Source of the DNA: a virus
Length of the DNA stretch: 64,000 nt
IMG/VR virus record: IMGVR_UViG_3300048577_000544
Span: 472 to 64,471 of that record
Strand: one strand, 5' to 3'
The position numbers and the translations under genes are program-made. Of the stretch, positions 1,185-35,329 are shown piece after piece (the first letter of the stretch is position 1; the number at the start of each line of letters is the position of its first letter). The notes below the pieces were generated by a model. That model ran no database searches, was not told the origin of the DNA, and saw only the letters and a list, made by a program, of their open reading frames with translations.

Positions 1185-1898
1185 ATGGCAAGCATTCAGT
1201 ATTATTCATTTTGGCTATGGCAATATGAAGTGCGAAGTGAAAAGCCGCTTGAAGAGAAAACTTTTAGAAATCATAATTATGCAGATCCAAATACAGTAAA
1301 TGTATCTGCGAGTGGTACTGAATTTACAAACAAAATTCCTCAAGATTTGATTATACAGGCCATCATAAATAACGAATTTACGCCATGCGGGCCAAGTATT
1401 TCAAGCGAAATATCCGCCCGTTCTTGTCTAAAACTTTCAAAAGGATTGAATGAATCAAACCTGTTTATTGCAATAAAGTACAACGCTCCACTCGAAAAAC
1501 TTATCCCCGAGATGAAAATGCTCATCGCAATGCAACGGCAATGGGCGGTGACTAAAAAGATAGAAATCACAGAGGAAGATCGCATAAAGGCAGGGCTTGA
1601 GGCTACATTAATCTATCAACAGGCCGAGGAAGAATTAAACGCCTATTTTGTTAAAGACAAACCAAATATACACAAAGAAGGAGCGCAAAGAGCATTAGGA
1701 TTATGGTTATTTGATTATTGTCAAAAACGCTCCTGTGGATGCCCGACTGCTTACGCCGCGCTAGAAAAGACGGGCTACCTAGAAAAATTGAACTACGGAA
1801 AAAAAGACAGTAAAAATGAGGAACGCCATTTTGCCAGACTTCTGAAAAACGCTCGCGATTGCATAGCAGCGTGCGAGGTCTTGCCCATAGGAGGATAG
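1185..1898 (+). CDS. Hypothetical protein (AT-rich), possible island regulator
   Basis: 237-aa ORF with GGAGAG RBS, between integrase and AlpA-like gene. Confidence 0.6.
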   Translation: MASIQYYSFWLWQYEVRSEKPLEEKTFRNHNYADPNTVNVSASGTEFTNKIPQDLIIQAIINNEFTPCGPSISSEISARSCLKLSKGLNESNLFIAIKYNAPLEKLIPEMKMLIAMQRQWAVTKKIEITEEDRIKAGLEATLIYQQAEEELNAYFVKDKPNIHKEGAQRALGLWLFDYCQKRSCGCPTAYAALEKTGYLEKLNYGKKDSKNEERHFARLLKNARDCIAACEVLPIGG

Positions 1899-2594: not shown

Positions 2595-3181
2595 TTGTCG
2601 AAAATGACATCCGCATCGTGACGCTCCAATCCTGGGAGTTGTCCGTTGTCCGATCCATGACCGCGACATGGGATTATCCTGGCCGGTCGAACATTCGGGG
2701 CCGCGAGGACCGGGCCGGGACGCTCGGGACTGATGCCCTTGTGGGCCAAATAGGAACCTACGCCGGCCTTAAATTCCTGTACGGGGCTTCCTGCCTCGAC
2801 AAGTACCTGACGGGGCGATGGCACGCGAATCGGCGCAAGTTCGAGGGAGACGGCGGGTCCGATGTTGACGCCTTAAACTTGGACTTCAAGGCTTCCCTGC
2901 GTCGCGATCCGAGCAAGCCCCTACTGTCCTACAATCTGGCCGTACGTCCACGGGAACGCCATGACGATTGGACGTACATTCTCGCCATAGTGGGGTCTTT
3001 GGCCGGGGAACAAGCCTTGGTCTACATCCTCGGATGGGCCTCAACGGCGATGATCCCAGACACCCCCGCCGAAGATGGCCCGCTGGCCGGGGCTCACCTT
3101 CTCCATGCCCGCGAACTTCACCCCCTTCCGCCGTTCAAGTGGCGTTATTTTGAGAGGTGCGCGCCATGCCTGCTGAACTGA
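2591..3181 (+). CDS. Hypothetical protein, possible PD-(D/E)xK nuclease-like fold
   Basis: GTG start overlapping the upstream TGA; motif GDGGSDV...LDFKAS resembles D...(D/E)xK. Confidence 0.5.
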   Translation: MIVENDIRIVTLQSWELSVVRSMTATWDYPGRSNIRGREDRAGTLGTDALVGQIGTYAGLKFLYGASCLDKYLTGRWHANRRKFEGDGGSDVDALNLDFKASLRRDPSKPLLSYNLAVRPRERHDDWTYILAIVGSLAGEQALVYILGWASTAMIPDTPAEDGPLAGAHLLHARELHPLPPFKWRYFERCAPCLLN

Positions 3182-5925
3182 TTTCCATGCTGCGGTCGCT
3201 GTATAACGGCCGACAGGATATTGTGCCACGTCGGTGGGAGAATAGGGGGGGGCGTGCTGGATATTCCCCAATATGCAGTGTGAGGCTAACAGCCGATTGT
3301 CTCATCACTAAGTCCCGAAAAACTGGTGGTGTGACGCGCGGCTTATGCAAGCACTGTGACATCAAACAGTATCAGCCCCTGACTGACGACCTGTTGCAAA
3401 GACACCTCGACGGTCGGGAGGTCCTCGGCTGCTACCCGCTGCTGCCCGGCGGCATATGCAATTTCATCGTGGGCGATTTCGATGACCACACTGGCGACCG
3501 CGACCCAAAAAAAGACGTGCTGGCAGTCCAGGCCGTTGCCGAGGTTCAAGACCTCCCGATGAGCGTCTTCACTTCCCGGAGCGGGGCCGGGTTCCACGGT
3601 TGTTTGTTCTTCGCTGCGCCTTTGCCCGCTTGGAAAGCCCGACTCGTGTACTTCGCGTTGCTGGAAGAAGCCCAGGTTTTAGCTGAGGGCGCGGAGCTAG
3701 GCAGCTTCGACCGGCTCATCCCGATGCAAGACCAGCTGCGCGGCGGGGCCGATCTCGGGAACTTGGTGGCCATGCCGTTCCAGGGCGCGGCCGTGCAGCG
3801 GGGGTTCACGCTCCTGTTGGACCCCGAGACCATGGAGCCATTCGCGGATCAGGTGACGGCGCTTAGGGCCATCAAGCGCGTGACCGAAGCTGACCTCGAC
3901 CGGGTTGTTGCCGAATGGGGCCTCAAGCGGCCTGAGGCAGCCAACAAGGACCGGGAAGGCGCGACCTGTGGAGCCCGACCGACCACGAACGCCTCGTCGG
4001 GCAAGCGGAAGTACGCCGAAAAAGTCCTGCAAACCTCCTGCGAGAAAATCCGACAAAGCCGCCCCGGGGACCAACACGACGTGCGCCTGAAAATGGCCCG
4101 GACTGTTGGGGGGTATCTGCACTATATGGATGAGGCGGTAGCCCTTGCTGCACTGCGCGAGGCGGTGGTTGACAGCGGTGCCCAAGACATTGCAGCGGCC
4201 ATGCAAACTGTTCGGGATGGTCTGGAATATGGCCGGGCCGAACCCATCACGATTCCCGACCAGACCAACAGTACCTCCTCAGGCCACACAAGCCCCCTGG
4301 TGGAGCACGCCGGCCGTCTGTGCCGGGTGAAGTACACCGACAAGGGCGAGGCCGAGTACAAGTCCATTACCAGCTTCCTGTTTCGCCCCATCGAAGCCGT
4401 CTCTGTGGAGGGCGAAGGCGAGTATATCAAAACCGCCTTGGTGGCCGGTGCGGTGACTCGGGAAGTCATGCTCCCGCCCGACTGTTGGACCTCGACACAA
4501 AAGTTCCTGCGCGTCTTGCCCGGCCGGGAGTTCATCTTCACGGGAGCCGCCGTTGACGTGCAACTTGTGCGCGGATTCCTGGCCGGCATGACGATGGATC
4601 AGCGCCAGGGCGTGAGAACTGCCGGCTTTCACGGCGAAACCTTCGTCACCAGCGACGGCGGCTTGACCCCGGAAGGCCCGTCCGACAGGCTGGTTTACAT
4701 CAACGAAATTCAGAGCCCCTGCCGTCTGTTGAGCACTGAAGCAGCGACTGCTGACGATCTGGACGCCATCCGGGAGTCAATCACCGGCTTCAACGCTCCC
4801 AAAGTGGCGATGCCCGTCTTGGGCTGGTCGGTCGCCTGCTTCTTTGCGCCGGTCATCCGTGAAATTCTTGACGCCTTTCCTTTGATTTGCATTGAGGGGG
4901 AGGCCGGGGCCGGCAAGTCATCCACGGTGATGGCCGTCGTGGCGGGTCTATGGGCACTCCACGGGGCGGCCCGTGCGCTTGGTGAGCAAACGCGATTCAC
5001 GCTTATGCGGGCGGTGGACGGCAGCAACTCTGTTCCGCTCATCTTCGAGGAGAACAAGGCCTCTCGTATGTCGGAGAAACAGCAGAACCTTGTCTCCAAC
5101 CTCATTCGCGACGGCTACAATGCCTTTGAGGGTCAGCGCGGCATGGCGGATCAATCCATGCGCTCATACCGCTATCAAGCTCCCGTTTGCATCGTCGGGG
5201 AGACCGGCTTCACCGAAACCGCGATTCTCGACCGGATGGTAAACGTGGCAATGACCCGCCGGGCCAGTGCCCCATATCGGACCGGGTTCCAAAAGGTGCA
5301 ACGCCTGCCCCTGGATCGCTTGGGCCGCACTATCCTGGAACATGCGCTTCGGATGGACGCCGAATCCGTGGGGGCGCGTCTGCGGGACTGCTGGCGCGAC
5401 GTTGGCCCCGCCCTTGAAGACCGGCCGCGCAACAATGCCGCCGTCGTCCGCTTTGGGCTGACCATCCTGGGTGATGTGCTCGGCATGGTCTTCGACGCCT
5501 CTCCTGTTGACGCCGCCATTCTGGCTGGCACGTCGGAAGATGGCGGTCCCCGGAAAACGGCAGTGGACCGCATCATCGAGGCCATGGGGCGTATGGCGGC
5601 ATTCGCAGAGCGTAGCCAGGGCCGCGAGTACACTTTCCAGGATCATCTGGAGCCAGACGTTCACTATTATAGCGACGGGCAGACCCTCCGACTGCATGTG
5701 TCCGGGGCCTACCCGGTCTTTGCAAAGTGGGCGCGGGTCCATGGCTTCGACGGCGACGTGATCCCGGAGGCGACCTTTCGCAAACAAATTCAGGGGGAGG
5801 CATATTTCCAGGGGGGCGGGGCCATCTGGATGGGGAGCAAAACCCGGAAAGGCATCGTCTTGGACGTATCGGCGATGGCGGCCAAGGGGCTGGATGTGCC
5901 CGAGGAGTGGGTAAATGCAAGCTAA
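3157..5925 (+). CDS. Primase-helicase (N-terminal AEP/TOTE-like primase, C-terminal P-loop helicase)
   Basis: N-term YSPIC..CKHC..LTDDLLQRHLDG..GCYPLL..C.F.V.DFD and SRSGAGFHG (AEP motifs); Walker A IEGEAGAGKSST; Walker B-like LIFEE. Confidence 0.85.
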   Translation: MRAMPAELISMLRSLYNGRQDIVPRRWENRGGRAGYSPICSVRLTADCLITKSRKTGGVTRGLCKHCDIKQYQPLTDDLLQRHLDGREVLGCYPLLPGGICNFIVGDFDDHTGDRDPKKDVLAVQAVAEVQDLPMSVFTSRSGAGFHGCLFFAAPLPAWKARLVYFALLEEAQVLAEGAELGSFDRLIPMQDQLRGGADLGNLVAMPFQGAAVQRGFTLLLDPETMEPFADQVTALRAIKRVTEADLDRVVAEWGLKRPEAANKDREGATCGARPTTNASSGKRKYAEKVLQTSCEKIRQSRPGDQHDVRLKMARTVGGYLHYMDEAVALAALREAVVDSGAQDIAAAMQTVRDGLEYGRAEPITIPDQTNSTSSGHTSPLVEHAGRLCRVKYTDKGEAEYKSITSFLFRPIEAVSVEGEGEYIKTALVAGAVTREVMLPPDCWTSTQKFLRVLPGREFIFTGAAVDVQLVRGFLAGMTMDQRQGVRTAGFHGETFVTSDGGLTPEGPSDRLVYINEIQSPCRLLSTEAATADDLDAIRESITGFNAPKVAMPVLGWSVACFFAPVIREILDAFPLICIEGEAGAGKSSTVMAVVAGLWALHGAARALGEQTRFTLMRAVDGSNSVPLIFEENKASRMSEKQQNLVSNLIRDGYNAFEGQRGMADQSMRSYRYQAPVCIVGETGFTETAILDRMVNVAMTRRASAPYRTGFQKVQRLPLDRLGRTILEHALRMDAESVGARLRDCWRDVGPALEDRPRNNAAVVRFGLTILGDVLGMVFDASPVDAAILAGTSEDGGPRKTAVDRIIEAMGRMAAFAERSQGREYTFQDHLEPDVHYYSDGQTLRLHVSGAYPVFAKWARVHGFDGDVIPEATFRKQIQGEAYFQGGGAIWMGSKTRKGIVLDVSAMAAKGLDVPEEWVNAS

Positions 5926-5944: not shown

Positions 5945-6180
5945 CTTACCCCGCCTTACCCCAACCTTACCCCTTTCTTACCCCATAACCAATTGAAATA
6001 TATAATTCCTTACCCTTCTTACCCCTACAGAAAAGGGGGTACACATGAGAGCCCTCCCCACTGCATGGGGCTAGTTTTCCCTTTTTATAGCGAGGGGGTG
6101 TCTCCCAAAGGGGTAAGGAAGGTAAGGTATTAATAAATTCAAATGGTTAATGGGTAAGAAAATGGTAAGTTTAGGGTAAG
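5945..6180. repeat. Iteron array / putative replication origin
   Basis: Six CTTACCC copies (5945, 5955, 5966, 5977, 6009, 6018) facing five (G)GGTAAG copies (6111, 6121, 6152, 6164, 6174); 50-bp imperfect inverted repeat 5977-6026 / 6109-6158 (40/50); directly after the primase stop. Confidence 0.8.
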
Positions 6181-6266: not shown

Positions 6267-6617
6267 ATGAAAACCGATTTCTACGACACCATGCTCAATT
6301 GCATCATTTCCGCAGGTGCTGGCCAGAAGATCGCCGAGAAGGCTGTTGAAGGACTCCTTACAGTGCTTGGCGGATCGTATATCCCAAAGATCGACCCCGC
6401 CATCCCAGGCCGAAACAAGCGCATTATACATGCGTGGCGGCTGGGCTACTCCTCAAGGGAACTATCTGAAGGGTATGGTGTGAGTCAAAGAACGATCCAA
6501 CGGTTATGCAAAAATGTCCCGAAAGACCTTTCCGCGTGCCTCTTGGGGACAACCCGCGATTACTACAGCCTGTCGCTTTCCGATGGTTTCATCGACACGG
6601 GGGACGGGAAAAAATAA
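6267..6617 (+). CDS. Mor/C-family transcription activator
   Basis: LGGSYIPK...RNKRIIHAWRLGYSSRELSEGYGVSQRTIQRL matches the Mor pattern (GG..yiP, C-terminal HTH). Confidence 0.75.
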   Translation: MKTDFYDTMLNCIISAGAGQKIAEKAVEGLLTVLGGSYIPKIDPAIPGRNKRIIHAWRLGYSSRELSEGYGVSQRTIQRLCKNVPKDLSACLLGTTRDYYSLSLSDGFIDTGDGKK

Positions 6618-7254: not shown

Positions 7255-7746
7255 ATGGAATTAAAGCAAACTGAGAAATCGAAAGGCGGACGGCCGACCG
7301 GCTACACCGAGGAGATAGGCGACGAAATATGCGCCCGAGTGCTGGCAGGCGAAACAATCAATGAGATTTGCGCGGGCCAGGATATGCCGCCTGTGAGAAC
7401 CCTGTACGGTTGGCTAAAGCAAGTACCAGCGTTCGAGCAGGCGTACGCGCGCGCGCGGGCTGAATCCGGGCAGGCCAGCGAAGGTAAAATACGCGGCTAT
7501 ATGCGGCAGGTGGTGACCGGCGAGCTTGATTCGACAGCCGCGCGTGTTTTGATCGACGCTGAAAAATGGCTTGCGTCAAAACGTGCCCCACGGACCCATG
7601 GTGATCGTGTCGAGGTCGAGCATAGCGGCACTGTCGGCCAAGCCATGCAGGTCACCGTCAACGTCGTGGGTTATGATCCATCGCCGCCCGCCATCGATGT
7701 TGTGCCTACTGCTACTGCGTTGCCTACGGCATCTGTAGAGAATTAA
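7255..7746 (+). CDS. Terminase small subunit (Sf6/P22-like, HTH)
   Basis: GGRPTGYTEEIGDEIC..VLAGETINEIC...DMPPVRTLYGWL...F..AYARAR and C-terminal GDRVEVEHSG are characteristic TerS motifs. Confidence 0.85.
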   Translation: MELKQTEKSKGGRPTGYTEEIGDEICARVLAGETINEICAGQDMPPVRTLYGWLKQVPAFEQAYARARAESGQASEGKIRGYMRQVVTGELDSTAARVLIDAEKWLASKRAPRTHGDRVEVEHSGTVGQAMQVTVNVVGYDPSPPAIDVVPTATALPTASVEN

Positions 7747-7779
7747 AACGTGTAACACACTTGAAAATAAGGGGAAAAC

Positions 7780-8193
7780 ATGGCCGACACACCTTTCATG
7801 GACATTCGTTCCGCCGTCCGAACCATTGAAACCACGTCATTCGATTCTGCCGAGAACCGCGCTGGCAGGGAATTCTTGCGCGGACAGATGGATGACTCGG
7901 CCCGCGACAGCTTCGACGACGCCGTAACGACCCTTCGTGCGTCATTGGCCCCGATGACTCCCGAAGATCGCGAGGCGTGGCGGGGTTTCCACTGCGAGAT
8001 TGCGCCGGGCGATGGCCTCAATTTCGTCGTTAATGCGATCCCGGCCGTCTCGCTGCGAGAAGTTTCTTCGATCTCAGGCCCCGGCGTTGCGCCCCGGTTT
8101 GGCACTCCCACCACGCAGCGCGGCGCTCTTTATCGCTACGTGGAGTCGATTGCGCCCCACACCCCGGACGGCCCGACGTCCAGCACCGCCTAA
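7780..8193 (+). CDS. Hypothetical protein
   Basis: 137-aa ORF with AAGGGG RBS. Confidence 0.55.
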   Translation: MADTPFMDIRSAVRTIETTSFDSAENRAGREFLRGQMDDSARDSFDDAVTTLRASLAPMTPEDREAWRGFHCEIAPGDGLNFVVNAIPAVSLREVSSISGPGVAPRFGTPTTQRGALYRYVESIAPHTPDGPTSSTA

Positions 8194-8238
8194 ATCAGAC
8201 GCCTGACCCTAAACCGTTCCATCAAAGGAGTCTCACGT

Positions 8239-10080
8239 ATGTCGCTTTTGTTTCCCGATCCGACGCAACCAGCGTTCCCGCTTGCCGAGCAAATCCAGTG
8301 GGACTTGCAGGGAGACAAGGGCGCGGCGGATCGGTTGCGCGGCGTGGGACTCCAAGTGATGGAGCAGTTAAAGCGAGAAAACGTCAACGATTACCCAATA
8401 TATCGCCTTGGTCCGTTTGAATATCCGGGCGGCGTGAGGGTTCGCGTGTTTCGCCAGAAGCAAATCTTCGTGGACCTGTACATCGTCTCCATCTACGCGC
8501 CGCCAAGTGAACAGCCGAAGCAGGTAGAAGATCGGGAGCTGATACCGGAGTTGGAGAAGGGTCAGTTCTATTGGGTGCCGGGGTGTGTGGCGCGGTATGA
8601 TGCCGTCAAGGACTCCAAGAACTGCATACCAAGCGGGCCGCTTGCGGGGGAGTCGGTAAGTGCAGCCGGTAATGCTTCTGGGGCAACCTCAGTGTTGGCT
8701 TACAGGTGTATTGACTTTGGCCTTCCAACCCCCGGTGCCTCTCCCGATGGGAGTATCGTCCGTAACTACCACGCGGTGGTTTTGCCGGGCAATTCGGTAG
8801 ATACGGCAATGGCGGATATAGATTCGGGCCTTACTTTTTCGGCTGACCATATCCCAACTTCGGGACCTTTTTCACTTTCGTGTATAGTAAAGCTCAATTC
8901 TCCTGTAAAAGTAGACTACAGTTTCACTGAAAAAACCAACGAACTCAATGATGGATTCACAAACTATAACATATTTAAGCCCAGGTTTCTGACGTCCGCT
9001 GATGGCGAATCATGGTCATCCCTTTGCCCTGGAAGTCTCGCCCCCCTAATCGGATGTCTTGAAATTTCCAGATTCTCTGACCATTGGGTCAAGATTACGC
9101 CCCCCTGGCCACCGTACAACGACAACTTTGTGGACAACGCAGTGCATGCGATTGGATATCGAGAGATCGGCACAATTTGCGCCGACGAACCGCTGCTGAC
9201 GTCCGACTATGATGCCGCGTCCCCCTATTGGGATAAGGTGACGACTGGCGAACTGGAGGCGCTTTCCGGGGAGTTTGATGGCGGGTGGGCAGAAAATACG
9301 GAGACGGCAAACACCACGCCTTATGCGTCGTATTGCCGTTTCAAGGTTTTGGGTAGCCACGTCAAGCCCGTTGGCACCCGCGCTATTCGCGCCCTGGATG
9401 GTGGCGAAAAAAGATATTCCACGGTCTACTCATGCAGTTATGACGAAGGCACAGACACTACGTCTTTCGTTCTCAAGGACTACCAACACAAGCTGTATAT
9501 GACCGAATCGGATGGTGAAGCCTCAATCATATTCGGACAACAGCCGTTCCCTGTCTGCCATCCGCAAGGTTATATGGTCGGCATGAACCTGTTGGGCATG
9601 TGCTGGTTTAATGGGAACCGCATCCTTGCTGGGAAGGTATGCGACTTCCAGGGAGAGTACGCATTACCTCCCACCATGTCCGATCCTCTGGAAATTGGCG
9701 AGTGGTATCATGTTTGTATGACATATGACGAAGAGGGGAAGACGAATCTATACACAACAAAGCTCGGTGTGCGGACAATTAATGTAAAGAGTTTTTTGCA
9801 ATCAACCTCAGTATTTATTCCAGACAAAGATTTAAAGTTTTATTCTGGCATTGAAATGTGGAACAACGCCCCAAGCGTTACAGCTCCATCTTCAGAATGG
9901 AGAGCCGCTTGGGTTTATTCAGCAGCAATGGACATTGGCCTGCCGAGATTTTATTTTCATGCACTCTCCGATGATGAAGTACGCGCGTTATTACTTGAGT
10001 CGTTCCATGGGGTATTTGTAGCGGACGATTACGAAGCCGCACAACTGATAGGGGCTGGCCTAACGCCAGTAACACTGTAG
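8239..10080 (+). CDS. Putative virion/tail-associated protein with LamG/ConA-like lectin segment
   Basis: AAGGAG RBS; EIGEWYHVCMTYD...TNLY and terminal RFYFHALSDDEV resemble LamG-fold signatures. Confidence 0.55.
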   Translation: MSLLFPDPTQPAFPLAEQIQWDLQGDKGAADRLRGVGLQVMEQLKRENVNDYPIYRLGPFEYPGGVRVRVFRQKQIFVDLYIVSIYAPPSEQPKQVEDRELIPELEKGQFYWVPGCVARYDAVKDSKNCIPSGPLAGESVSAAGNASGATSVLAYRCIDFGLPTPGASPDGSIVRNYHAVVLPGNSVDTAMADIDSGLTFSADHIPTSGPFSLSCIVKLNSPVKVDYSFTEKTNELNDGFTNYNIFKPRFLTSADGESWSSLCPGSLAPLIGCLEISRFSDHWVKITPPWPPYNDNFVDNAVHAIGYREIGTICADEPLLTSDYDAASPYWDKVTTGELEALSGEFDGGWAENTETANTTPYASYCRFKVLGSHVKPVGTRAIRALDGGEKRYSTVYSCSYDEGTDTTSFVLKDYQHKLYMTESDGEASIIFGQQPFPVCHPQGYMVGMNLLGMCWFNGNRILAGKVCDFQGEYALPPTMSDPLEIGEWYHVCMTYDEEGKTNLYTTKLGVRTINVKSFLQSTSVFIPDKDLKFYSGIEMWNNAPSVTAPSSEWRAAWVYSAAMDIGLPRFYFHALSDDEVRALLLESFHGVFVADDYEAAQLIGAGLTPVTL

Positions 10081-10089
10081 GAGGCTAAT

Positions 10090-10917
10090 ATGGACATTTT
10101 GACGCAGTATTACAACCATGGCGGCCAGATCGTCAGCAAAGTCCCCGGAATGGACACACGCGAGTTTTACCGGGATGTGATGTTTCGGCATCGGTTTAAG
10201 GAAATGTTCTGTGCGGGGTCGGAATCTGACGGCGTTGGTTTTGCATATTCAGATACTGGAATTTACTTGAACTGCGGAAATATGCCAGGGGGCTTACCGC
10301 TATCGAACATCAATGACGCCAGCGTTGTATATTCCATGGTGGCCGGGTCGAATGGCAATCAAGCCATACAACCAACGGCAATCAGCATGTTGCCGGCTGT
10401 CTCTGGATATAAAGCTTTTGCCCTTTCTACGGGAGAAAACGACACCGTAGATTTGAAAGTTAAAAACATACGGCTCCGCGCGGTTATTAAGCTGGGTGCT
10501 TCTATACGCAACATGAGCTTGCAAGTTTATGATGGAGCGACCGGCGCGGGAATCGAGGGAAAGCGCGAGACTTATTTTCAAATCGGCATCAACAAATGGG
10601 ATAACACTAGAATCATCCAGATGTATGCGCCGACGACTCTCTACAGGGGATATGCGTCTGACGCTGATTTAGATTGGTATGTAAGCAATAGCTACACCGA
10701 TGGATTCCTATTCGACAACGCATTTCATGTCTATGATGCCTTTCTGAATGTTGATGGGGCTATCAATCTGCAAGTAGACGGAGTTACCGTATTGAGTGGG
10801 AGCTTCCCATCCCCCTGGATAGAGGGGTTTTACTCTCCAGTATTGCAGGTGCTTTGTGGCTTTGATGATGGAACCGAAACCTATGCCATCGAATCGCTTG
10901 AGGTAAAAGCTATATGA
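10090..10917 (+). CDS. Hypothetical beta-rich protein (tail module)
   Basis: GAGG RBS; FHVYDAFLNVDGAINLQVDG is lectin-like; coupled to the next gene. Confidence 0.55.
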   Translation: MDILTQYYNHGGQIVSKVPGMDTREFYRDVMFRHRFKEMFCAGSESDGVGFAYSDTGIYLNCGNMPGGLPLSNINDASVVYSMVAGSNGNQAIQPTAISMLPAVSGYKAFALSTGENDTVDLKVKNIRLRAVIKLGASIRNMSLQVYDGATGAGIEGKRETYFQIGINKWDNTRIIQMYAPTTLYRGYASDADLDWYVSNSYTDGFLFDNAFHVYDAFLNVDGAINLQVDGVTVLSGSFPSPWIEGFYSPVLQVLCGFDDGTETYAIESLEVKAI

Positions 10918-11513
10918 AACTTCCCTACCCCCAAAGCGTCAACTGCTCCTTCGATGGATTCCCTGCGGCCATTGCTATGACCTGCGGCGAGAGGATAAAC
11001 GAAATTGAGCCGGGCGAATCCTACGGCTCTCGCCAAAGGTTGTTCCAAACCCCGAAGAGTCGGGTTCTCCAAGGCGAGTATGTGGTGGGGCAAGCGATAC
11101 CCGATCTTGCCGTGACCTACTCCGACACGGGCAGCGACGACGATTTCAGCATTAAGCTTTCACACATCGGCTACGGCACGTTCTACAAGCTTACAAAGTC
11201 CGACAAATATTTCCGCGCCATGGTCTACAAGGCCATTGTGATCGAGACGCCCACGGCAGGCAAAAAAGTCTTCGGCGATACCTTCGATTGTGAAACTCTT
11301 ATCCCAGCCGACACGGACACGACGGCGCTGTTCTCGTATGATGGGCCGGCTATCCAATATGTCGACACCGCCACCTCGGGAAGTGCCTCCGGGACCATCG
11401 TCATCGGGGGGCAGACTTACAACCTCGCGGAAGGTGCCAGCATCACGATCACATCGGCAACCGGCGGCACTCAAACGGTCACATTCGTCGGTGGCACATT
11501 CGTCGTCAACTAA
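10914..11513 (+). CDS. Hypothetical protein (tail module)
   Basis: ATGA overlap with the upstream gene; Thr/Gly-rich beta C-terminus. Confidence 0.55.
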   Translation: MKLPYPQSVNCSFDGFPAAIAMTCGERINEIEPGESYGSRQRLFQTPKSRVLQGEYVVGQAIPDLAVTYSDTGSDDDFSIKLSHIGYGTFYKLTKSDKYFRAMVYKAIVIETPTAGKKVFGDTFDCETLIPADTDTTALFSYDGPAIQYVDTATSGSASGTIVIGGQTYNLAEGASITITSATGGTQTVTFVGGTFVVN

Positions 11514-11547
11514 TCCCTGCCGGGTAGATAGAAAGGGAAACTATCGT

Positions 11548-13224
11548 ATGAGTGCTTCAATTCTCTCCTACATCGCCACCATGGACGCCGCCACCGTGGA
11601 CAACCCCACGGGTGACGGATTTTGCGTCACCCCGCTTTGCACCGGCACCGGAACCGGCACGTCTGGCTGTGTCGCTCTTGCCGATATCCCGGCCATGACC
11701 TGCGATGGCGTAGCCGATTGGGCACCGATAGGCATTGCCACGCTGCCGACTATGGCCGCCATGGGCACGACAGACGATTACCGCCCGGCCTGGGGTGATC
11801 TGTCCTTGCCCGCCCTTTCTGGCGACGGCACGGCACATGTGATCATTGAGTCGCAATGCCTGCTCACGCCGCTTTTCGGTGTCGGCTACACCGGGGCCGT
11901 GGCTAGTAATGCGATGCCTGCTTTTTCGGCCTACGGGATTGACGACTCTTTCAACCGTGCGGCGTCCGGTGCCGGGACAATTCCGTCCCTGACCGCTTCA
12001 ACGCTCGTTTGCGGCATCGACAAGCCCATCGACAACGGGGCGACATCCGCCGCCGTGGTCAACCTGCTCCAGCAGGGAAACACGACGATAGCCGATGCGG
12101 CCGAAGCAGTTTGCACTGGGATGACCACCTCCGACGCCAAGGCTTTGGTCCTGGTCCGGTATGTGTCGAATCTCCTGACGTACACCTCGGACAGTTCGAG
12201 CGGCATAGGCGACCGCTGGACGTGCGCCCTGGCGACCTTGCAGCGCGAGTACGGCGACTGCGAGGATGGGGCTATCCTGCTCCATTCTCTGCTTCTCGCG
12301 GCTGGCGTTAACCCTGGCCGCATCCGCACGGCGTTTGGAACGGCGATGTCCTCGGCACTTACCGAGGTCGGTCACGCCTGGGTCATGTATCGCCGACTGA
12401 CGGACGAGGAATGGATACCGTTGGAATGGACGGCGCAGCCGACGCCGTACACGGTCCCCATTTATTCCATCAATCGGCAAGTGGACCGGGCGGCCGACTA
12501 CACGGCGATTTCCTATATCTTGACCGATGAGAAATTCTACACCGTAGCAGACATCAACTACATCGCCAATCTCGCGGCGAATCGTTCAACCGGAGAAGCC
12601 GCGATACCGGCTCTTGAAGCTGACGGTGCTTCCGGTCCTCGGTGTGCCGCATCGCTTCGCCTGGGCAAGATGGACGCCACGGGGCAGGCCGGCGCAAGTC
12701 TTTCCGACTATCTGCCAAAATTGGTGGCGATGGGGAGCGGGCAACAGCTTGGAACAGCCCAAGGCGCGGCGATTATGCCGGCCCTGGCCGCCACCGGCTA
12801 CACTGGTGCCCACGGCGCGGCCTCGCTCTCGAAGCTGGCGGCGGTCGCGCAATGCGGCACATCGGCCAGCGGTAAGGCGAACATCCCGGCATTGACCCTT
12901 TCCGCTTCGGCCCAGGTCGATCTTCTGTGCGCCGGTTCGCTCTCGCTGCCCAAGCTGACGATGACGGGCCGGGGCAACGGTGGCTCCCTGCTGGCGGCTG
13001 CCGCGACACTGCCGCCTTTGGCAGTCACCGGCCGGGCCAAGCAAGGGCCTGTCGCCAAAGGTGCGGGCAAGCTCCCGCGACTCTCTTGCCTTGGTCATGC
13101 GGCTGTTCTTGTTGTGGCAGAGGGGGACGCCGAGTTGCCGCCGTTGGAAGGCCGAGGCCACGCGGTCAACGTCTCCACCTCCTGGGGCAAGCCTCTGCGA
13201 TATAATCCGAACCGGTGGGCGTAA
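11548..13224 (+). CDS. Repeat-rich fibre-like protein with inserted transglutaminase-like (LapG/BTLCP-type) cysteine protease domain
   Basis: Start at MSASIL (AAAGGG RBS); YTSD...DRW...GDCEDGAI...GHAW...PLEW gives a C-H-E triad; about 16 (G/A)-x2-3-(L/I/M)P-x-(L/M)-x3-G repeats on both sides. Confidence 0.7.
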   Translation: MSASILSYIATMDAATVDNPTGDGFCVTPLCTGTGTGTSGCVALADIPAMTCDGVADWAPIGIATLPTMAAMGTTDDYRPAWGDLSLPALSGDGTAHVIIESQCLLTPLFGVGYTGAVASNAMPAFSAYGIDDSFNRAASGAGTIPSLTASTLVCGIDKPIDNGATSAAVVNLLQQGNTTIADAAEAVCTGMTTSDAKALVLVRYVSNLLTYTSDSSSGIGDRWTCALATLQREYGDCEDGAILLHSLLLAAGVNPGRIRTAFGTAMSSALTEVGHAWVMYRRLTDEEWIPLEWTAQPTPYTVPIYSINRQVDRAADYTAISYILTDEKFYTVADINYIANLAANRSTGEAAIPALEADGASGPRCAASLRLGKMDATGQAGASLSDYLPKLVAMGSGQQLGTAQGAAIMPALAATGYTGAHGAASLSKLAAVAQCGTSASGKANIPALTLSASAQVDLLCAGSLSLPKLTMTGRGNGGSLLAAAATLPPLAVTGRAKQGPVAKGAGKLPRLSCLGHAAVLVVAEGDAELPPLEGRGHAVNVSTSWGKPLRYNPNRWA

Positions 13225-13230
13225 TCGACC

Positions 13231-13503
13231 ATGCCCAGCTTGTTTGATCCTCTTGTGTTCCTGGAACGCGAAACACGTTGCGAGGTTGCCCTTGATGACG
13301 AGGGGGTGGTGCGCCTGAAGTTCGACCGGCGGCATACCCCGGAGAACATCAAAAAGGCCCAGGCCGTGGCCAAGCGGTATGACCGGCTGCTGACGTTGCA
13401 GCTACGGGAGGGACACAAAAGCGTTCAAAAGCTCTTGGCGCTCGGCAAGATCAAGCTGGTTGGCAGGCGGTATGTCCTGCCGGGGGCTACTCCGTCTCCT
13501 TGA
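13231..13503 (+). CDS. Small hypothetical protein, paralogue of 32551-32823
   Basis: Aligns by eye with the prophage ORF (FDP..L...C...L..G.V.L.FD...D.LL.LQL...VQ.L.A.G.I....RYV). Confidence 0.7.
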   Translation: MPSLFDPLVFLERETRCEVALDDEGVVRLKFDRRHTPENIKKAQAVAKRYDRLLTLQLREGHKSVQKLLALGKIKLVGRRYVLPGATPSP

Positions 13504-14971: not shown

Positions 14972-15655
14972 CTACGCATGGCATTCCTCCTCATCGGCTT
15001 CCTCTTCAAAACAGCCCTTGTTGGATTTTCGGTAGCCGGCAAGCTTGGCCAGTTTTGCCAATTCTGGAAGCACGGAAAACTGTTCGTCGCGCTGGATATA
15101 CGCTTCCGCGACGTCGGCCAGTAGTAAACCCACGGGGTTAGCGCTTTCGTCCTCTTCGGGCTTAAGCATGTCCGCCAATGCGCACAGCTTGCGCCAGTGC
15201 TGGTCAATAAATTTGCTGCCCTCTTTCATGTCGTCACTAATGGACTCGTAAAGCTTCGCCACCTTGGCGCGGTGTTCGTCGCTGAATTCTGGCTCATCCT
15301 CTTCGGGTTCATCTTTGGGAGCCTCGTTGGCCGGCGCTATGGGCGGGGTAACGCTGACGATCAAGTTGAAAGCCTTCCTCGTCACGGTGTCATGTACGGA
15401 TGCCCGCTCTTCGGGATTCAGGTCGCTAAGCTCCCCTTTGATCTCGTCCATTTGGGCAACCACGCGGTCGAGCTTTTCCAGCACATCGGCCGTGGTCGCG
15501 GTGTCTGCGTGTTCGTCGTTGCCGGGCACGCTCTGCGGAGCCTCACGACGGTAGAACGGCTCCGTAGGGGAGGGCTCTTCGTAGTCCTCGGGTACACCGA
15601 CAAGAGCAATAGGCTTGCGACCGGAGAAGAGATTCCAAAAATTGAAGTTACGCAT
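14972..15655 (-). CDS. Hypothetical acidic helical protein
   Basis: Start at MRNFNF with GGAGG RBS; 227 aa. Confidence 0.55.
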   Translation of the reverse strand: MRNFNFWNLFSGRKPIALVGVPEDYEEPSPTEPFYRREAPQSVPGNDEHADTATTADVLEKLDRVVAQMDEIKGELSDLNPEERASVHDTVTRKAFNLIVSVTPPIAPANEAPKDEPEEDEPEFSDEHRAKVAKLYESISDDMKEGSKFIDQHWRKLCALADMLKPEEDESANPVGLLLADVAEAYIQRDEQFSVLPELAKLAKLAGYRKSNKGCFEEEADEEECHA

Positions 15656-16250
15656 GGCTAGCCTCCATCGGCTCGGACGTGTTGGCGGAAGGTTCAGCGT
15701 GGCCAAATAGCGAAGCCTGGGCATGGGGACTACGAAGGTGAATCTCACCTAAAAAGCCCTCTTGGGGGACAGAATGACCAGAACTATGGCCGGGGTCGCT
15801 CCCGTCTATTCTTGAGCGCGAAACAGTGTCCTGTACTGTTCCAAAACCGTATTTCCGCCCTTGCTCCCGTCGCTTCTCCCTAGCCGCTGCCGAGTAGAAA
15901 GGATTTTTGCCACATCGGTACGGCCAAAGGGAACAACCTTCCATCCCAAGATAGGCCAGCCCGGCAACGCAAGCGGTCGCGTCCTCCTGGGGAAGGCAGC
16001 TTTCGGCGCAATACGATTTGATGAGGCGCAGCAACCGACGATCCGCGCCGGCTTCGATGGTGCCGCAACGATACTGGTGGAACTTGCACGTGGTCGTCGC
16101 ACAGGCTCCAACCAACAAAGGGTTGCCGCCCATGCAGACACGGCAAAAAGTTTGAATAGCCAAAAGCGGAGTTGTGCGCTTGCCCTGGAATCCGGGCAAA
16201 GTGGTAAGGTTGCCTCGGGCGCGAGGCTGCATTAAAGAGCGCGTAGCCAT
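15648..16250 (-). CDS. Protein with tandem duplicated Cys-rich (zinc-binding) motif
   Basis: AIQTFCRVCMGG...C....CKFHQYRCG and LIKSYCAESC...C...CSLWPYRCGKNP; GGAGG RBS. Confidence 0.65.
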   Translation of the reverse strand: MATRSLMQPRARGNLTTLPGFQGKRTTPLLAIQTFCRVCMGGNPLLVGACATTTCKFHQYRCGTIEAGADRRLLRLIKSYCAESCLPQEDATACVAGLAYLGMEGCSLWPYRCGKNPFYSAAAREKRREQGRKYGFGTVQDTVSRSRIDGSDPGHSSGHSVPQEGFLGEIHLRSPHAQASLFGHAEPSANTSEPMEASHA

Positions 16251-16326: not shown

Positions 16327-16644
16327 TTACGAGTCGCCCGGATCGCTCGGGGCGTCGTCCTCTCTTGGCTGTGACAGGACTCGGTCAATCTCTTCCTTCG
16401 TGATGTACCACTTGCGAAGCCCGATCCGCTTGGCCTTGATGGTGCCATTGGCGCACCATCGCCTTACCGTTGTGGCGGGTATTCCTGACAGCTTCGCTAG
16501 CTGTGTGACCGAAAACAATGTCCTATCTTCCATGTCTCCCTCGTGCTCTAGGTGGCCGGCAAGCTTATCGAGGCTTTCGGGGCCAACCTCGCGCAGTAAC
16601 TCGACCAGCCTTTTATATTCGAACTCGTCTTTAAGCTGCTTCAC
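16327..16644 (-). CDS. Excisionase-like HTH protein
   Basis: FSVTQLAKLSGIPATTVRRWCANGTIKAKRIGLRKWYITKEEIDR. Confidence 0.8.
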   Translation of the reverse strand: MKQLKDEFEYKRLVELLREVGPESLDKLAGHLEHEGDMEDRTLFSVTQLAKLSGIPATTVRRWCANGTIKAKRIGLRKWYITKEEIDRVLSQPREDDAPSDPGDS

Positions 16645-17311
16645 TTATGGACCTCAAATAGACCTGACGCACAACTGGGGGCGTCCAGGCGCGGCCCGTC
16701 TTGGTCAAGATGCCATCGGCATTCATCTGGTTGGCAATCCGATGGTAACCATGCCCCTTCGCTCTCAAACTCTCGATGAGACGTAAGCCCCTCTGCTCTG
16801 CCGGGTTCTCCACCAGCTTGCCGGCCAACACATCGAAGCCGAAGGGGATGCCCCCGCCGGTCTTTTCTCCACGGCTCCGCTTGGCTTTCAGTGCATCTTT
16901 TGTGCGCTCCCCGATGGCTTCTCGTTCCCATTGGGCCACGCTCATCAACACGTTTAGCACCAACCTTCCGCCGGCACTGCTCGTGTCTACCTGTTCGGCC
17001 ACCACGAGAAGATGGGCATTCCCACTGAAATGCTGTTCCAGAAGATCGCCCATGTCGCGGACAGAACGCGTCAGTCGGTCTAACTTGGCGATCAGTAGGC
17101 CGGCAGCCTTCCCGGCGCGAAGGGCATCAAGCACGCTTTGCAACCCATGGCGGCGAAGGTTTTTTCCGCTGGCGGCCTCGGTGACGACCTCCACCATCTC
17201 GTGGCCGTACAGATCGCAGTAAGCCCTAAGCTTTGCGGTTTGGGCTTCTAGGCCCAGCCCGCTTGCGCCCTGCTCGTCAGTGGAAACCCTGGCGTAACCG
17301 ATGACTTTCAT
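16631..17311 (-). CDS. Serine recombinase (resolvase domain plus short recombinase domain)
   Basis: GYARVSTDEQ (catalytic Ser), EAASGK, AKLDRLTR, ERTKDALKAKR..GEKTGG; GGAGGG RBS. Confidence 0.93.
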   Translation of the reverse strand: MKVIGYARVSTDEQGASGLGLEAQTAKLRAYCDLYGHEMVEVVTEAASGKNLRRHGLQSVLDALRAGKAAGLLIAKLDRLTRSVRDMGDLLEQHFSGNAHLLVVAEQVDTSSAGGRLVLNVLMSVAQWEREAIGERTKDALKAKRSRGEKTGGGIPFGFDVLAGKLVENPAEQRGLRLIESLRAKGHGYHRIANQMNADGILTKTGRAWTPPVVRQVYLRSISEAA

Positions 17312-17573
17312 GGTGCCGCCCTCCGTTGGCTGAAACGTGGCACAGTGGTCGATAAATGTCAAAAAGTATTTTTATGGTCATTGTCCAGAGCGGAAATCGT
17401 AGCCCTTCGACCGATGACTTACGGTTTTGGCCTATGGCGGTCAAAGTGGCTCAGATGGAGCTTGTCATTGTGCTTCTGGCCAAGGACACCACGGCCTTGC
17501 CCGAGAAGGCCGGCATGAGATACATTCAAGCCGACACCATCAAGATCGAGGAGGACCGGCCTTTGTGCGCCGC

Positions 17574-19435: not shown

Positions 19436-19732
19436 CTACCGACGCACCGTCGCCCTCATCACTCCATCTTTTCCAAACTCAATTTGGCGCACCTCGACAA
19501 CTTGGCCAACCTCAAGGGTTTTACCTTGCCGGCAGTCCGCGCCATCAATGCGGGCTGTAAACCAATAGTCCTCGCCGTCCGGTTGAAAGCCGAAAGTACG
19601 GCAGTCCACAACCTCGGCCACGGTGCCCCGTACCCAGCCCCCCATGTCCTCTTGTGGGCGAAACAGGTAAAAGGCTGCGACGGCGGCCAGGGTGAAGAGA
19701 ACCACGCGACAGAGCAGGCGCGCGCGGATCAA
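19436..19732 (-). CDS. Membrane-anchored small beta protein
   Basis: N-terminal hydrophobic helix; coupled to the PLD gene. Confidence 0.5.
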   Translation of the reverse strand: MIRARLLCRVVLFTLAAVAAFYLFRPQEDMGGWVRGTVAEVVDCRTFGFQPDGEDYWFTARIDGADCRQGKTLEVGQVVEVRQIEFGKDGVMRATVRR

Positions 19733-20247
19733 TATGCCTCCGAATGCTCCCGGTGCTTCTGCCAGTTGTCCAGGTAGAGCTTGGCCAAGCCGACGTCTCG
19801 AATGATGAGGAGGTTTTCGGCGTTGGAGTTTTCCGCCGCCTTGGTGAAGTTGAACGATCCCGTGATTAATGTCTGCCCGTCGATTACCATCACCTTGTTA
19901 TGCGCGATGGCGTGGGCCGCGTCTATGTAGACCGGGATGCCCTCGTTTTTTAGAAAGGTGGCCCCGGTGTAGGTCGCCGTTCGCTGTGATTTGTCCAAGA
20001 CCGCCTCAACCTTTACGCCGCGCTTCGACGCGTCCACCAGGGCCTTGGCTATTGGGGCGCTCGTAAAACTATACGCCTGCACATAAACGCTTTGCTTGGC
20101 CTGCCCTATGGCGTCAACAATGGCATCCTGTGCGCCACCCTTAGGGCTGAAATAAACGCTGACAGGGGTGTCGTGAAGGGTGAGGTCGTAGGCAAAGGCC
20201 GGTGACCACGGCAGGACGAGACAGAGGACAAGGAGAAGGCGCTTCAT
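19729..20247 (-). CDS. Exported phospholipase D-family nuclease (Nuc-like)
   Basis: Signal peptide; single HKD motif AHNKVMVID..TGSFNFT..NAEN. Confidence 0.9.
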   Translation of the reverse strand: MKRLLLVLCLVLPWSPAFAYDLTLHDTPVSVYFSPKGGAQDAIVDAIGQAKQSVYVQAYSFTSAPIAKALVDASKRGVKVEAVLDKSQRTATYTGATFLKNEGIPVYIDAAHAIAHNKVMVIDGQTLITGSFNFTKAAENSNAENLLIIRDVGLAKLYLDNWQKHREHSEAY

Positions 20248-20253
20248 ACTCAC

Positions 20254-21847: not shown

Positions 21848-22618
21848 ATGCCACACGATGATTTACAAGGCCATCTCGCAAATATTTCAAGCAGTTGTGC
21901 CCTTGAATTACTTGAAATTACCGCAAAATGCCTGCATTGCGATTCAGAAAATGATTATAGGCATATATTCACGCTACTTAAAAACCTTATACCATTCGAC
22001 AAATCGACATCAGGCCTTGCAAGCTTAAACAACAACGATATTGTATCATATGAACTTATCAATATTAATTACCCGAATGAATGGTTAAAAATCTATAAAG
22101 AAAACGACTTCAACAAAATTGATGTCATTGTGCAAAATCATTTTACACATTTTACTCCGCAGTATTGGGATTTTACCTACAAGAAGTTCAAGCAATCCCC
22201 AAAAATTGCATCATTGGCGTCTGATTTTGGCATCATACACGGATATACCTTTGGAATGAGGCCGTTCGGTTTTTGCAAAACGGCAAGTCTTTACTCTTTT
22301 TCTGGAAAATTCAACACATATGATTCGAGAGTAATATCCATTTTACAAACAGTAGTCCCTCACATACATTTAGCCTCATCGCGCATAGTTGAAGAGCGCA
22401 GAATTGAATGCAACAAAAAGGTGTTATCAAGACGTGAAAATGAAGTCCTAAAATGGTTAAAGAGAGGGAAAAGTTCATGGGACATCTCTGTAATACTTGA
22501 GATAGGCGAGAGCACTGTCAACTTCCACATTTACAATATCATGAAAAAACTTGATGTTGTAAACCGCCCCCAAGCTATTGCGGTGGCAACTCATCTTGGG
22601 CTACTTGATATTGATTAA
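21848..22618 (+). CDS. luxR: LuxR-family autoinducer-binding transcriptional regulator
   Basis: NYPNEWLKIYKENDFNKIDVIV (W, Y, D of the AHL pocket); C-terminal LSRRENEVLKWLKRGKSSWDISVILEIGESTVNFH. Confidence 0.9.
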   Translation: MPHDDLQGHLANISSSCALELLEITAKCLHCDSENDYRHIFTLLKNLIPFDKSTSGLASLNNNDIVSYELININYPNEWLKIYKENDFNKIDVIVQNHFTHFTPQYWDFTYKKFKQSPKIASLASDFGIIHGYTFGMRPFGFCKTASLYSFSGKFNTYDSRVISILQTVVPHIHLASSRIVEERRIECNKKVLSRRENEVLKWLKRGKSSWDISVILEIGESTVNFHIYNIMKKLDVVNRPQAIAVATHLGLLDID

Positions 22619-23282
22619 ACCAAGCTATCAACTCAGGCTTTTGAAGAAGATTTCTGTCCTCGAAGTCTCTCCAGTCCATTATTGCCGCAGCAGCCACAAT
22701 ACCATCTGACATTCTCGTGGGTTCACCAATCAGTGCACACGGAAATCCAAGCATTTTTAAAAGCCTAAACACTTTATATTCAACCACTAGATATAAATAT
22801 CGAACATTGAACTCAGCACACCATTGATAAACGCGGCGATATAGAAACATTGACACGCCAAGTTGTCCTATATCAGTGCAAAACCTTGTCGAACGTTCAT
22901 CAAAATCCACACATAAACGAGAAACTTCACGTGTGTCACTGTCTTTTCTAAGGACATACCCTGGAGATACCAAGTTAGAAAATTCTTTTTCCAACATAAA
23001 CCGGTAATCAGGCGTGACAAGTCGCAGATACGACAGAATGTTCGTATTTTTAAAAACTCCAAAATGCTCTGCATATTTATCATAAGCATCTTGTTCAAGG
23101 CCATTATCGTTTTGCTGCACCCACCCCAACTCTTCAGCAAACACCTTGTGGCGCAATTCATACGCAAGCGTTATCGTGTCGTCACAAATGACACGTGCGT
23201 CCACTTTGCATACAGATTCCAAACCTTGTTCATATCCACCCCCACTCTTCAGATACTCATTGCTTCTAGACTCTATCAGCAT
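22575..23282 (-). CDS. luxI: LuxI-family acyl-homoserine lactone synthase
   Basis: LRHKVFAEELGW (R, F, W), EQDAYD, YLRL, EVSRL; AAGGAGG RBS; 3' end overlaps luxR by 44 bp. Confidence 0.85.
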   Translation of the reverse strand: MLIESRSNEYLKSGGGYEQGLESVCKVDARVICDDTITLAYELRHKVFAEELGWVQQNDNGLEQDAYDKYAEHFGVFKNTNILSYLRLVTPDYRFMLEKEFSNLVSPGYVLRKDSDTREVSRLCVDFDERSTRFCTDIGQLGVSMFLYRRVYQWCAEFNVRYLYLVVEYKVFRLLKMLGFPCALIGEPTRMSDGIVAAAAIMDWRDFEDRNLLQKPELIAWFNQYQVAQDELPPQ

Positions 23283-32550: not shown

Positions 32551-32823
32551 CTACTCCTTCAGCGTCACCACATACCGCCCATCCCTGATTCGTATCCGCC
32601 CCGCCGCCATCAACTGTTGCACGGTTCTAGGGCGTGTCCCCGGCGGCACGTCGAGTTGGAGTCGCAGCAGGCCGTCCCAATTGCGGATGATGCGGCGAAT
32701 CCGTTCCCGGACCTCCCGTCGCATGTATTCGTCAAACAGGAGTTGCACCGAGCCGTCGGCGGCCAGTGAGGCGACGCACCCCTTGCGCGCCAGCCAGGCG
32801 CGAGGGTCAAATGGTGAGGACAT
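32551..32823 (-). CDS. Small hypothetical protein, paralogue of 13231-13503
   Basis: Alignment with the island ORF; lies at the end of the tail-fibre module. Confidence 0.65.
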   Translation of the reverse strand: MSSPFDPRAWLARKGCVASLAADGSVQLLFDEYMRREVRERIRRIIRNWDGLLRLQLDVPPGTRPRTVQQLMAAGRIRIRDGRYVVTLKE

Positions 32824-33013: not shown

Positions 33014-33715
33014 CTACGGCCAGACAATCCCCAGTAGCACGGCGTCGATGGCCAGGGCGTCGCCGGCGGCTTTGACGGCGGCCTGGGCGGCCGTGCAGGT
33101 CCGGTAGAGGGCATCGGTCCAAAACGTGATTTCGGTGGTCAGCGCCTTAAATGTCTCGGTGGTGTGCGGAATATGATTGCCGTCGGCGTCGTCCCAGACG
33201 AAACCATCGGGCAGCGTCATACCGCCGGCCAGCTTGGATTCAAGCCCGGTCATCCATTGACGAACAGCGGCGTTTGCTTTATAAGTCACGCCTTTGGAGT
33301 CGGTGAACGTGCCGAACATCCGGGCGTCGGTCCAAGCGTCGAGCCGGGCCACGGCCGTCATTCGCAGCGCGGCCACATCGTCGACCGGCGGCGGCACGGC
33401 CCGATCTGCGCAACCCCAGGCCACGGCCTCGGCAACGGTAATTCCCATCCGGGTCAGGGCGTTGTTCGGGTCGACCATCCATTGCGACAAGTGTCGGGCC
33501 GTGGCTGTTCCCCGGTCATCGTAGTCCGTCAGCACACGGTGCCCGGCGATGGCCGTTACCGTGTCGGCAAGCGGGACTTCGCCCAAAGGCACCCAGCCGT
33601 AGCGCTCATCCATGAGCGTTTGCACCAGGGCCAGCGCCGGGGCCGCGTACGCCGGATCGGCCAGCAAGTTGACGATGTCCTGCCGTAAGCTGATCGTCTT
33701 CGGGAACCCCTGCAT
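33014..33715 (-). CDS. DUF4376-like tail fibre assembly protein
   Basis: C-terminal FTDSKG..Y.AN....W.DADGN.IP...F..L.......A.DA..IDAV..I.W pattern. Confidence 0.7.
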   Translation of the reverse strand: MQGFPKTISLRQDIVNLLADPAYAAPALALVQTLMDERYGWVPLGEVPLADTVTAIAGHRVLTDYDDRGTATARHLSQWMVDPNNALTRMGITVAEAVAWGCADRAVPPPVDDVAALRMTAVARLDAWTDARMFGTFTDSKGVTYKANAAVRQWMTGLESKLAGGMTLPDGFVWDDADGNHIPHTTETFKALTTEITFWTDALYRTCTAAQAAVKAAGDALAIDAVLLGIVWP

Positions 33716-35023: not shown

Positions 35024-35162
35024 GTGTTGTCATCGGGTTGGAGAGCGTTCGGCCTGCGCCTACTAGCTCCCCGCCCCCTCCGTCGTGTGTTTTGCCTGTC
35101 GGCCGTGCGGCCTACCGGGCAGGGCCGATGCGTCCAGCCTGGAGTCGTGGCCCGATCCAGTA
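35024..35162 (-). ncRNA. DGR TR-RT spacer (structured 3' part of the DGR RNA)
   Basis: GC-rich non-coding stretch between TR and RT containing GGCAAAACAC...GAGCTAGTAGG...CGAACGCTC. Confidence 0.55.
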
Positions 35163-35279: not shown

Positions 35280-35329
35280 GAGACGCATCAGCCAAATTTT
35301 CGCGGCGCGAGACGCATTGCGAACCGTCG

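Follow-up and report, generated by a model that had tools for sequence, protein, structure and literature searches.

Satellites that supply part of their own virion include the phage-inducible chromosomal islands of the capsid-forming kind (cf-PICIs), which take the rest from a helper phage, with consequences for host range (bioRxiv 10.1101/2025.02.11.637232). Tail genes are a forbidden component in the SatelliteFinder models, and satellites are defined and detected partly by their absence (PMC10085698); a literature search, incomplete in its coverage, returned no report of a satellite with a fibre module. In the podophage SU10, the adaptor is of a type that carries a fibre-dock domain, and the adaptor gene flanks the fibre genes on one side and the nozzle genes on the other (PMC9509320). 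Here we describe an island in a 64-kb stretch of viral DNA (the window), which is positions 472 to 64,471 of the 66.3-kb IMG/VR provirus record IMGVR_UViG_3300048577_000544. On the sequence evidence, the element is a genuine PICI-like satellite island rather than a decayed podophage prophage, and it carries a block of five genes, g1 to g5, of which the first four come from a podophage virion module. A capsid-less satellite with an intact lectin-like virion block is unusual, because tail parts are held to be almost wholly absent from satellites. The host was judged, by the names that homologues bear, to be a sulfate reducer of the Desulfovibrionaceae, similar to Solidesulfovibrio.

The block consists of the following genes, with structural assignments that come from AlphaFold2 (AF2) models, VIA structural searches and ESM Atlas models.

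8239-10080, + strand: g1, a predicted virion protein of 613 aa with a ConA/LamG lectin fold, tailspike- or fibre-like (AF2, VIA, homology to podophage modules).
10090-10917, + strand: g2, a LamG-like protein of 275 aa and candidate receptor-binding protein (Atlas model; conserved N-terminus, variable body).
10914-11513, + strand: g3, a conserved partner protein of 199 aa (homologues adjoin g1/g2 in phages and islands).
11548-13224, + strand: g4, 558 aa, in which two arms of LPxLxxxG motifs flank a cysteine-protease core of the transglutaminase/LapG-like type (PF01841, VIA, AF2).
13231-13503, + strand: g5, 90 aa, of a small family that ends fibre modules (paralogue in the neighbouring prophage).

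An earlier note on this DNA had described a 5.3-kb coupled operon following the small terminase subunit (TerS), with lectin-like proteins, a repeat-stalk protein and a small gene paralogous to the last gene of a prophage fibre module. The operon was found as described: all five genes are intact and on the + strand, with spacings of 9, -4, 34 and 6 nt, and one further gene, g137, sits between TerS and g1, 45 nt upstream of the latter. For the lectin-like proteins, the description held for g1 and less firmly for g2. The AF2 model of g1 (pLDDT 82) is dominated by a ConA/LamG jelly roll, and its matches in VIA include the carbohydrate-binding domain of AbnA (Z 18.2) and, across 219 residues, the cyanopodophage Pan3 tailspike (Z 15.7). 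A Foldseek comparison of the whole g1 model with PDB and BFVD, one of the checks that the note had proposed, gave weak domain-level lectin matches only (TM 0.1-0.25). We also considered g1 as a nozzle protein and ruled this out; its fold in VIA is a lectin jelly roll with no beta-propeller.

LamG/GH16 jelly rolls matched the ESM Atlas model of g2 at TM 0.53-0.62. Residues 1-41 of g2 are almost invariant in 12 homologues, and the remainder is 22-46% identical; the sole full-length homologue above 40% identity belongs to another island, L013 (42% by tblastn, 46% in alignment A3). A fixed anchor with a changeable body is the usual layout of receptor-binding proteins, which makes g2 a candidate for this role. 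Prediction of a g1-g2 complex gave a median score of 0.03 against a mark of 0.32, which speaks neither for nor against binding and was not used as evidence. The adjoining g3 shares 35-62% identity with the gene that neighbours g1/g2, both in phages and in the islands L013 and L048.

Translation of g4 starts at ATG 11548, behind an AAGGGA motif, and not at GTG 11290. The repeats of the proposed repeat-stalk protein were recovered here as 11 [LIM]P.[LMF]..G motifs, one about every 21 aa, where shuffles have 0.6, whereas the stalk itself has no confident AF2 model: only the core (about residues 153-343) folds confidently, and the arms were left unmodelled. The core matches PF01841 (E 7.4e-7; 29.9 bits, above the cut-off of 23) and, in VIA, LapG with Z 13.5 and the phage endoisopeptidases PeiW/PeiP with Z 9. 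C238, H276 and D286 are invariant in 32 homologues, with D286 the putative choice among the invariant aspartates for completing the catalytic triad. The small gene was paralogous as claimed: g5 is 34% identical over 87 aa (tblastn E 2e-8) to 32551-32823 (- strand), which directly follows the DUF4376 fibre gene of the prophage. A further g5 homologue, 57% identical to the prophage paralogue, stands after g3 in island L048, another follows a DUF4376 fibre-type gene in genome G006, and the family comprises 39 clusters at 50% identity. No match to g1-g5 was found in PHROGs, and tblastn with g1 and g4 against the phage collection returned no match.

Homologues of g1, g3 and g4 were identified at about 30 loci, which are mostly complete podophage virion modules in which these genes follow an SU10-type adaptor. 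In group 1 (at least 15 loci) the order is fixed as portal-capsid-SU10_adaptor-302-152-g1-(g2)-g3-g4-150-636-175-giant LPD polyvalent protein, where numbers give protein lengths in aa, and the gene after adaptor-302-152 is 41-56% identical to the g1 of the window. Group 2 is a second podophage-like element present in 25 of the 401 Desulfovibrionaceae genomes searched, and its 12 loci (L036-L047, for example G156:C1:3118000-3138000) keep the order portal-capsid-adaptor-302-152-g3'-X-g4'-150-short g1' (about 480 aa)-636, with a capsid that is 70-74% identical across genomes. The fixed order in both groups indicates that g1-g4 are a piece of a podophage virion module, and the comparison of genes and order shows them to have been captured from SU10-adaptor podophages. 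Assignment of g1-g4 as fibre-type rests on this synteny together with the lectin/tailspike-like fold of g1. PDB sequence and profile searches with g1, g5 and the 636-aa and 302-aa phage proteins returned nothing below E 0.03, and the ESM Atlas offered no usable fold for the 636-aa protein. The neighbouring prophage, which carries a diversity-generating retroelement (DGR), was considered as the donor of g1-g4 and ruled out, as there is no similarity and only g5 has a paralogue there.

The virion modules of the donor podophages end with genes for giant proteins (L002 16259-21686, L008 14491-20523, L012 17504-21974). These are 2000-3500 aa long, bear LPD1/LPD3/LPD38 and ddrB-ParB domains and are presumably polyvalent proteins that are ejected.

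In structure the g4 core comes closest to LapG, a protease by which a surface adhesin is released, and lectin folds bind surface glycans; the block could on these grounds serve lysogenic conversion, with the lectins and the LapG-like protease acting on the host envelope through adhesin processing, receptor masking or superinfection exclusion. We regard this as very improbable. Homologues of these genes all lie within virion modules, between adaptor and ejection proteins, and in the island they belong to a late, packaging operon. Furthermore, no N-terminal signal peptide was seen by eye in g1-g4, and g4 did not match PF06035, the LapG family proper, at E <= 0.01.

We next consider what kind of element carries the block. 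The island has its genes on the + strand through g5 and spans window position -470 to at least 16.3 kb, and the parts outside the block are listed below.

1-855, + strand: C-terminal 284 aa of a predicted P4-type tyrosine integrase of 441 aa (ORF 1-1326 of locus L032).
3157-5925, + strand: AEP primase-helicase of 922 aa, the island replication protein (PF22548 AEP-TOTE, E 1.7e-53).
5945-6180, no strand assigned: iteron cluster and putative replication origin, directly after the primase, with 9 of the 11 exact CTTACCC copies of the window.
6267-6617, + strand: Mor-like transcription activator (PF08765 Mor, E 1.5e-4, below the curated cut-off).
7255-7746, + strand: small terminase subunit of Sf6 type (PF20901, E 2.5e-25; phrog_1482, E 1.5e-33).
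7780-8193, + strand: g137, 137 aa, between TerS and g1 (no Pfam or PHROG match).
15648-16250, - strand: a 200-aa gene common to other islands (63% identical to L048 16174-16746; adjoins TerS homologues in L057, L059 and L060).

The integrase gene begins 470 nt upstream of the window, at base 1 of the record, and has an Arm-DNA-bind_3 domain (E 1.1e-5); the enzyme is apparently divergent, since its catalytic domain escapes Pfam. Small regulators lie between the integrase and the primase-helicase. The primase is 82-84% identical to those of two capsid-less islands, L029 and L030, which are laid out as int-(toxin-antitoxin)-regulators-primase-ERCC4-TerS without any structural genes. In the iteron cluster six CTTACCC copies are direct and three inverted, and the window total of 11 compares with 5.1 in shuffles. 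Two small open reading frames (ORFs) separate TerS from the Mor-like gene, which is a candidate activator of the TerS-g5 operon; a promoter and terminator scan of 5.9-14.6 kb gave counts equal to those of shuffles. The island TerS shows no homology to the prophage TerS (60212-60754, phrog_57), and g137 has no homologue in other islands or in the phages compared. A search of IMG/VR for close relatives of the primase and TerS found none or distant ones only.

The earlier note had also stated that tube, tape measure, capsid and portal genes are absent, and this was borne out: Pfam, PHROG and tblastn searches with podophage head, adaptor and nozzle-region markers detected no capsid, portal, tube, tape measure or adaptor gene in window 1-24 kb. 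Likewise, the island ORFs had no capsid, portal, TerL or lysis match in Pfam or PHROG and no tblastn match to the prophage's own markers. When about 20 podophage marker proteins were compared with the window, matches were confined to g1-g4, all four at full length. Conversely, five podophage records of group 1, two of them at least 93% complete, contain no homologue of the island primase or TerS. The island copies are intact, and they have lost none of the residues that never vary among the phage homologues, the Cys-His-Asp of g4 included. In addition, the 200-aa gene common to other islands lies 2 kb past g5, which places the g1-g5 block inside the island. A foreign backbone, full-length g1-g4 and an internal block position together argue against a decayed prophage. 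That alternative had been named in the earlier note as one of the outcomes that would undo its proposal, and one half of it was found, with homologues mostly in complete phages; the frameshifted copies and the phage-derived backbone were not. The part of the proposal that concerned a satellite island has therefore stood, given the primase shared with islands free of structural genes, the iteron origin and the P4-type integrase, and the block has proved to be a piece of a podophage virion module; the part that concerned its use on hijacked virions is weighed below. The element thus has its own primase and iteron origin and its own TerS, and no capsid, portal, TerL or lysis genes were found. It breaks the SatelliteFinder rule against tail genes, in that g1-g4 are homologous to podophage virion-module genes and g1 is tailspike-like, as judged by homology. 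It also differs from cf-PICIs, as no major capsid, portal, head-tail connector or adaptor, or TerL of its own was found in window 1-24 kb.

The genes g1-g2-g3 are also present in two further capsid-less islands, L013 and L048, in which the replication and packaging modules differ. L013, on a metagenome contig, has the order integrase-Toprim primase-ERCC4-TerS-TerL-273 aa-g1-g2-g3, followed by a toxin-antitoxin pair and an insertion sequence element. L048, in genome G100, reads tRNA-Leu-P4-type integrase-AAA_25 helicase-DnaG-like primase-ERCC4-DUF5681-g1-g2-g3-g5-like and is bounded by 80-nt direct repeats (att) 19.3 kb apart at tRNA-Leu; its other ORFs gave no structural match. Integrases, ERCC4 and small genes are the pieces common to the three islands. 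In the g1 tree the window and L013 copies are sisters (support 96/94) at about 51% identity, and L048 groups elsewhere, within a clade of phage copies (100/98). Every bootstrap tree requires two changes of the island label, and these separate placements call for at least two captures. Both island lineages keep every invariant residue of the family, and because the window and L013 sisters are about 51% identical and both intact, the block has probably been under long purifying selection while in islands. Recurrence and intactness argue for selection on the block within satellites.

These observations bear on whether the block is an inert scar of recombination, left either by podophage DNA entering a satellite or by a satellite inside a prophage that later decayed, with no role in the island. 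The position of homologues mainly in complete phages would fit such a scar, as would the G+C content of g1-g2 (49-50%, against 58-62% in the backbone), the mismatch between the TerS type of the island and the donor phage group, and the truncated serine recombinase and mobile cassettes in neighbouring DNA. Against it, however, five genes extend over 5.3 kb without frameshift or truncation, tightly spaced or overlapping within the TerS operon, and no other podophage fragment is present in the window. The retention of g1-g2-g3 in two other islands with different backbones, after at least two acquisitions, and the intactness of two g1 copies as diverged as those of the window and L013 also count against it. 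We consider an inert block distinctly unlikely.

Two side observations concern related islands. L013 encodes a large terminase at 7681-9099 (Terminase_6N, E 1.7e-6) without a portal or capsid, which is unusual for a satellite. Homologues of the window TerS (38-43% identical) were found in L057, L058, L059 and L060 (genomes G382, G248, G287 and G262:C2), beside a homologue of 15648-16250, with a 1025-aa primase near the TerS homologue in L057. No recognisable head genes were seen near these TerS homologues, and one of the four copies is on a 58.7-kb contig that is possibly a plasmid. These loci look like further satellites with other cargo.

Taken together, the results are consistent with a satellite that equips the particles it travels in. 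Upon induction of the helper the satellite would replicate, and its TerS would steer packaging into helper capsids. The lectin-fold spike or fibre g1, the variable receptor-binding body g2 and g3 would mount on the conserved tail platform of the helper, replacing the helper versions or sitting beside them, and g4, as a virion-borne cysteine peptidase, would act on the cell envelope. The satellite's own receptor-binding set would then pick the cells to which satellite-filled particles adsorb. That the satellite adds its own external adsorption parts to a head and tail core built by a helper, and so sets its own recipient range, is a proposal whose chances we judge to be about even. More tentatively, and with somewhat less than even confidence, we suggest that a family of Desulfovibrionaceae satellites mounts its own g1-g2-g3, with or without the virion peptidase, on hijacked podophage particles, such that the satellite picks the recipient cells. 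Virion incorporation, receptor binding, the effect on host range and the identity of the helper are all putative in this scheme.

A different use of the same genes would be interference, in which satellite copies of tail parts disrupt the tail assembly of the helper or titrate it, as when incompatible parts fill the fibre docking sites, and thereby lower helper yield. Satellites commonly carry diverged homologues of helper structural proteins, which disturb assembly, such as the capsid homologue Ccm of SaPIbov5 (PMC8569155), and Tai proteins of PICIs and prophages block tail assembly (PMC11364771); the island g1, at 41-56% identity to phage g1, is diverged in this way. On the other hand, the island copies are full length with every invariant residue kept, the transferred unit is a complete co-adapted set of g1-g2-g3 plus g5 and no single decoy, and the variable body of g2 resembles a working receptor-binding domain. 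We therefore view interference as unlikely, though deserving of some weight. Interference and self-equipment can coexist and are inseparable without experiments.

With respect to the helper, a group-1 prophage has, about 4 kb upstream of its portal gene, a TerS to which that of L013 is 47% identical, and this links the islands to group-1 phages. In genome G100 the L048 island occurs together with a group-2 prophage, and the 152-aa protein of this prophage has 86% identity to its group-1 counterpart. Several points weigh against the proposal that the satellite equips helper particles. Searches with TerS and the primase found no helper for the window island among the five group-1 podophage records, the island TerS homologues elsewhere belong to further primase-linked islands and not to phages, and the prophage that shares the window with the island, a lambda-like siphophage equipped with a TerS, TerL and tape measure protein of its own, is unrelated. 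The virion position of g1-g4 is predicted from synteny and fold, no solved homologue having been found in PDB sequence and Foldseek searches, and g3 lacks a fold assignment, as the ESM Atlas gave no usable fold (pLDDT 0.37). Since g4 occurs in neither L013 nor L048, it may be a passenger. Finally, the left att site is outside the record, which opens at the integrase ATG.

The DNA around the block holds several other features. A patch of 43% G+C that separates the integrase from the regulators holds a 237-aa ORF at 1185-1898 (+ strand), without a Pfam match; this is probably cargo of recent acquisition and possibly a defence gene. Past the 200-aa gene, a 243-aa ORF at 16631-17362 (- strand) has a resolvase domain and only the start of a Recombinase domain, the ORFs downstream lack a recombinase signal, and it looks like a truncated large serine recombinase. 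A PLD-family nuclease (19729-20253, - strand; 80% identical) and a LuxR/LuxI pair (21848-23282; about 60%) recur together in genome G218, where the copies lie about 17 kb from a group-1 podophage prophage (L055 14949-16644), which suggests a mobile cassette travelling with these elements. From about 24.4 to 64 kb, on the opposite strand, is the complete and unrelated lambda-like siphophage prophage, which encodes a TerS, a TerL, a portal, a protease-capsid fusion, a tape measure protein and a DGR of its own. The DGR (33974-36817, - strand) has an Mtd-like target protein (PF21916, E 7e-14) beside a reverse transcriptase (PF00078), followed by the DUF4376 fibre-type gene and the g5 paralogue, which has the following position.

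32551-32823, - strand: g5 paralogue, which ends the fibre/DGR module of the siphophage-type prophage next to the island and is preceded by the DUF4376 gene (33014-33715).

If the proposal is correct, the island represents a new satellite strategy, in which a satellite has its own fibres together with a stolen head and tail core, and it would offer mobile islands a simple way out of the host range of their helper, which bears on gene flow in sulfate-reducing communities. Because current finders forbid tail genes, such satellites are excluded by them, and present surveys would under-count satellites by discarding elements with tail-like genes.

The island resembles the Gram-negative PICIs of the EcCICFT073 type and PICI-like TerS satellites in its predicted terminal integrase, its own primase and putative iteron origin, its own TerS and the lack of capsid and portal genes, and it also shares with PICIs the mosaic exchange of modules and, as seen in its relative L048, tRNA integration. 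It differs from them in its 5.3-kb block of virion tail type, its AEP-TOTE primase, its sulfate-reducer host and its length, which probably exceeds 16 kb. LapG and bacterial transglutaminase-like cysteine proteases, as well as PeiW/PeiP, share with the g4 core the fold and the invariant Cys-His-Asp, whereas in g4 the core is placed between 11 LPxLxxxG motifs, has no PF06035 match or visible signal peptide, and is encoded in a virion-module gene. The donor podophages share the adaptor family SU10_adaptor (PF24175) with SU10-like phages, which have a Kuravirus-type adaptor, and g1-g4 occupy the equivalent stretch; purely by analogy, they would thus stand where SU10 has its fibres encoded, with the adaptor on one side and the nozzle or ejection proteins on the other, although no similarity in sequence or profile links them to any protein of SU10 or any solved structure. 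Lastly, cf-PICIs have their own genes for capsid, portal, connectors and TerL and depend on stolen tails, whereas the island encodes external parts of tail or adsorption type instead and is in gene content their mirror image; if the proposal holds, it would be their mirror image in function as well.

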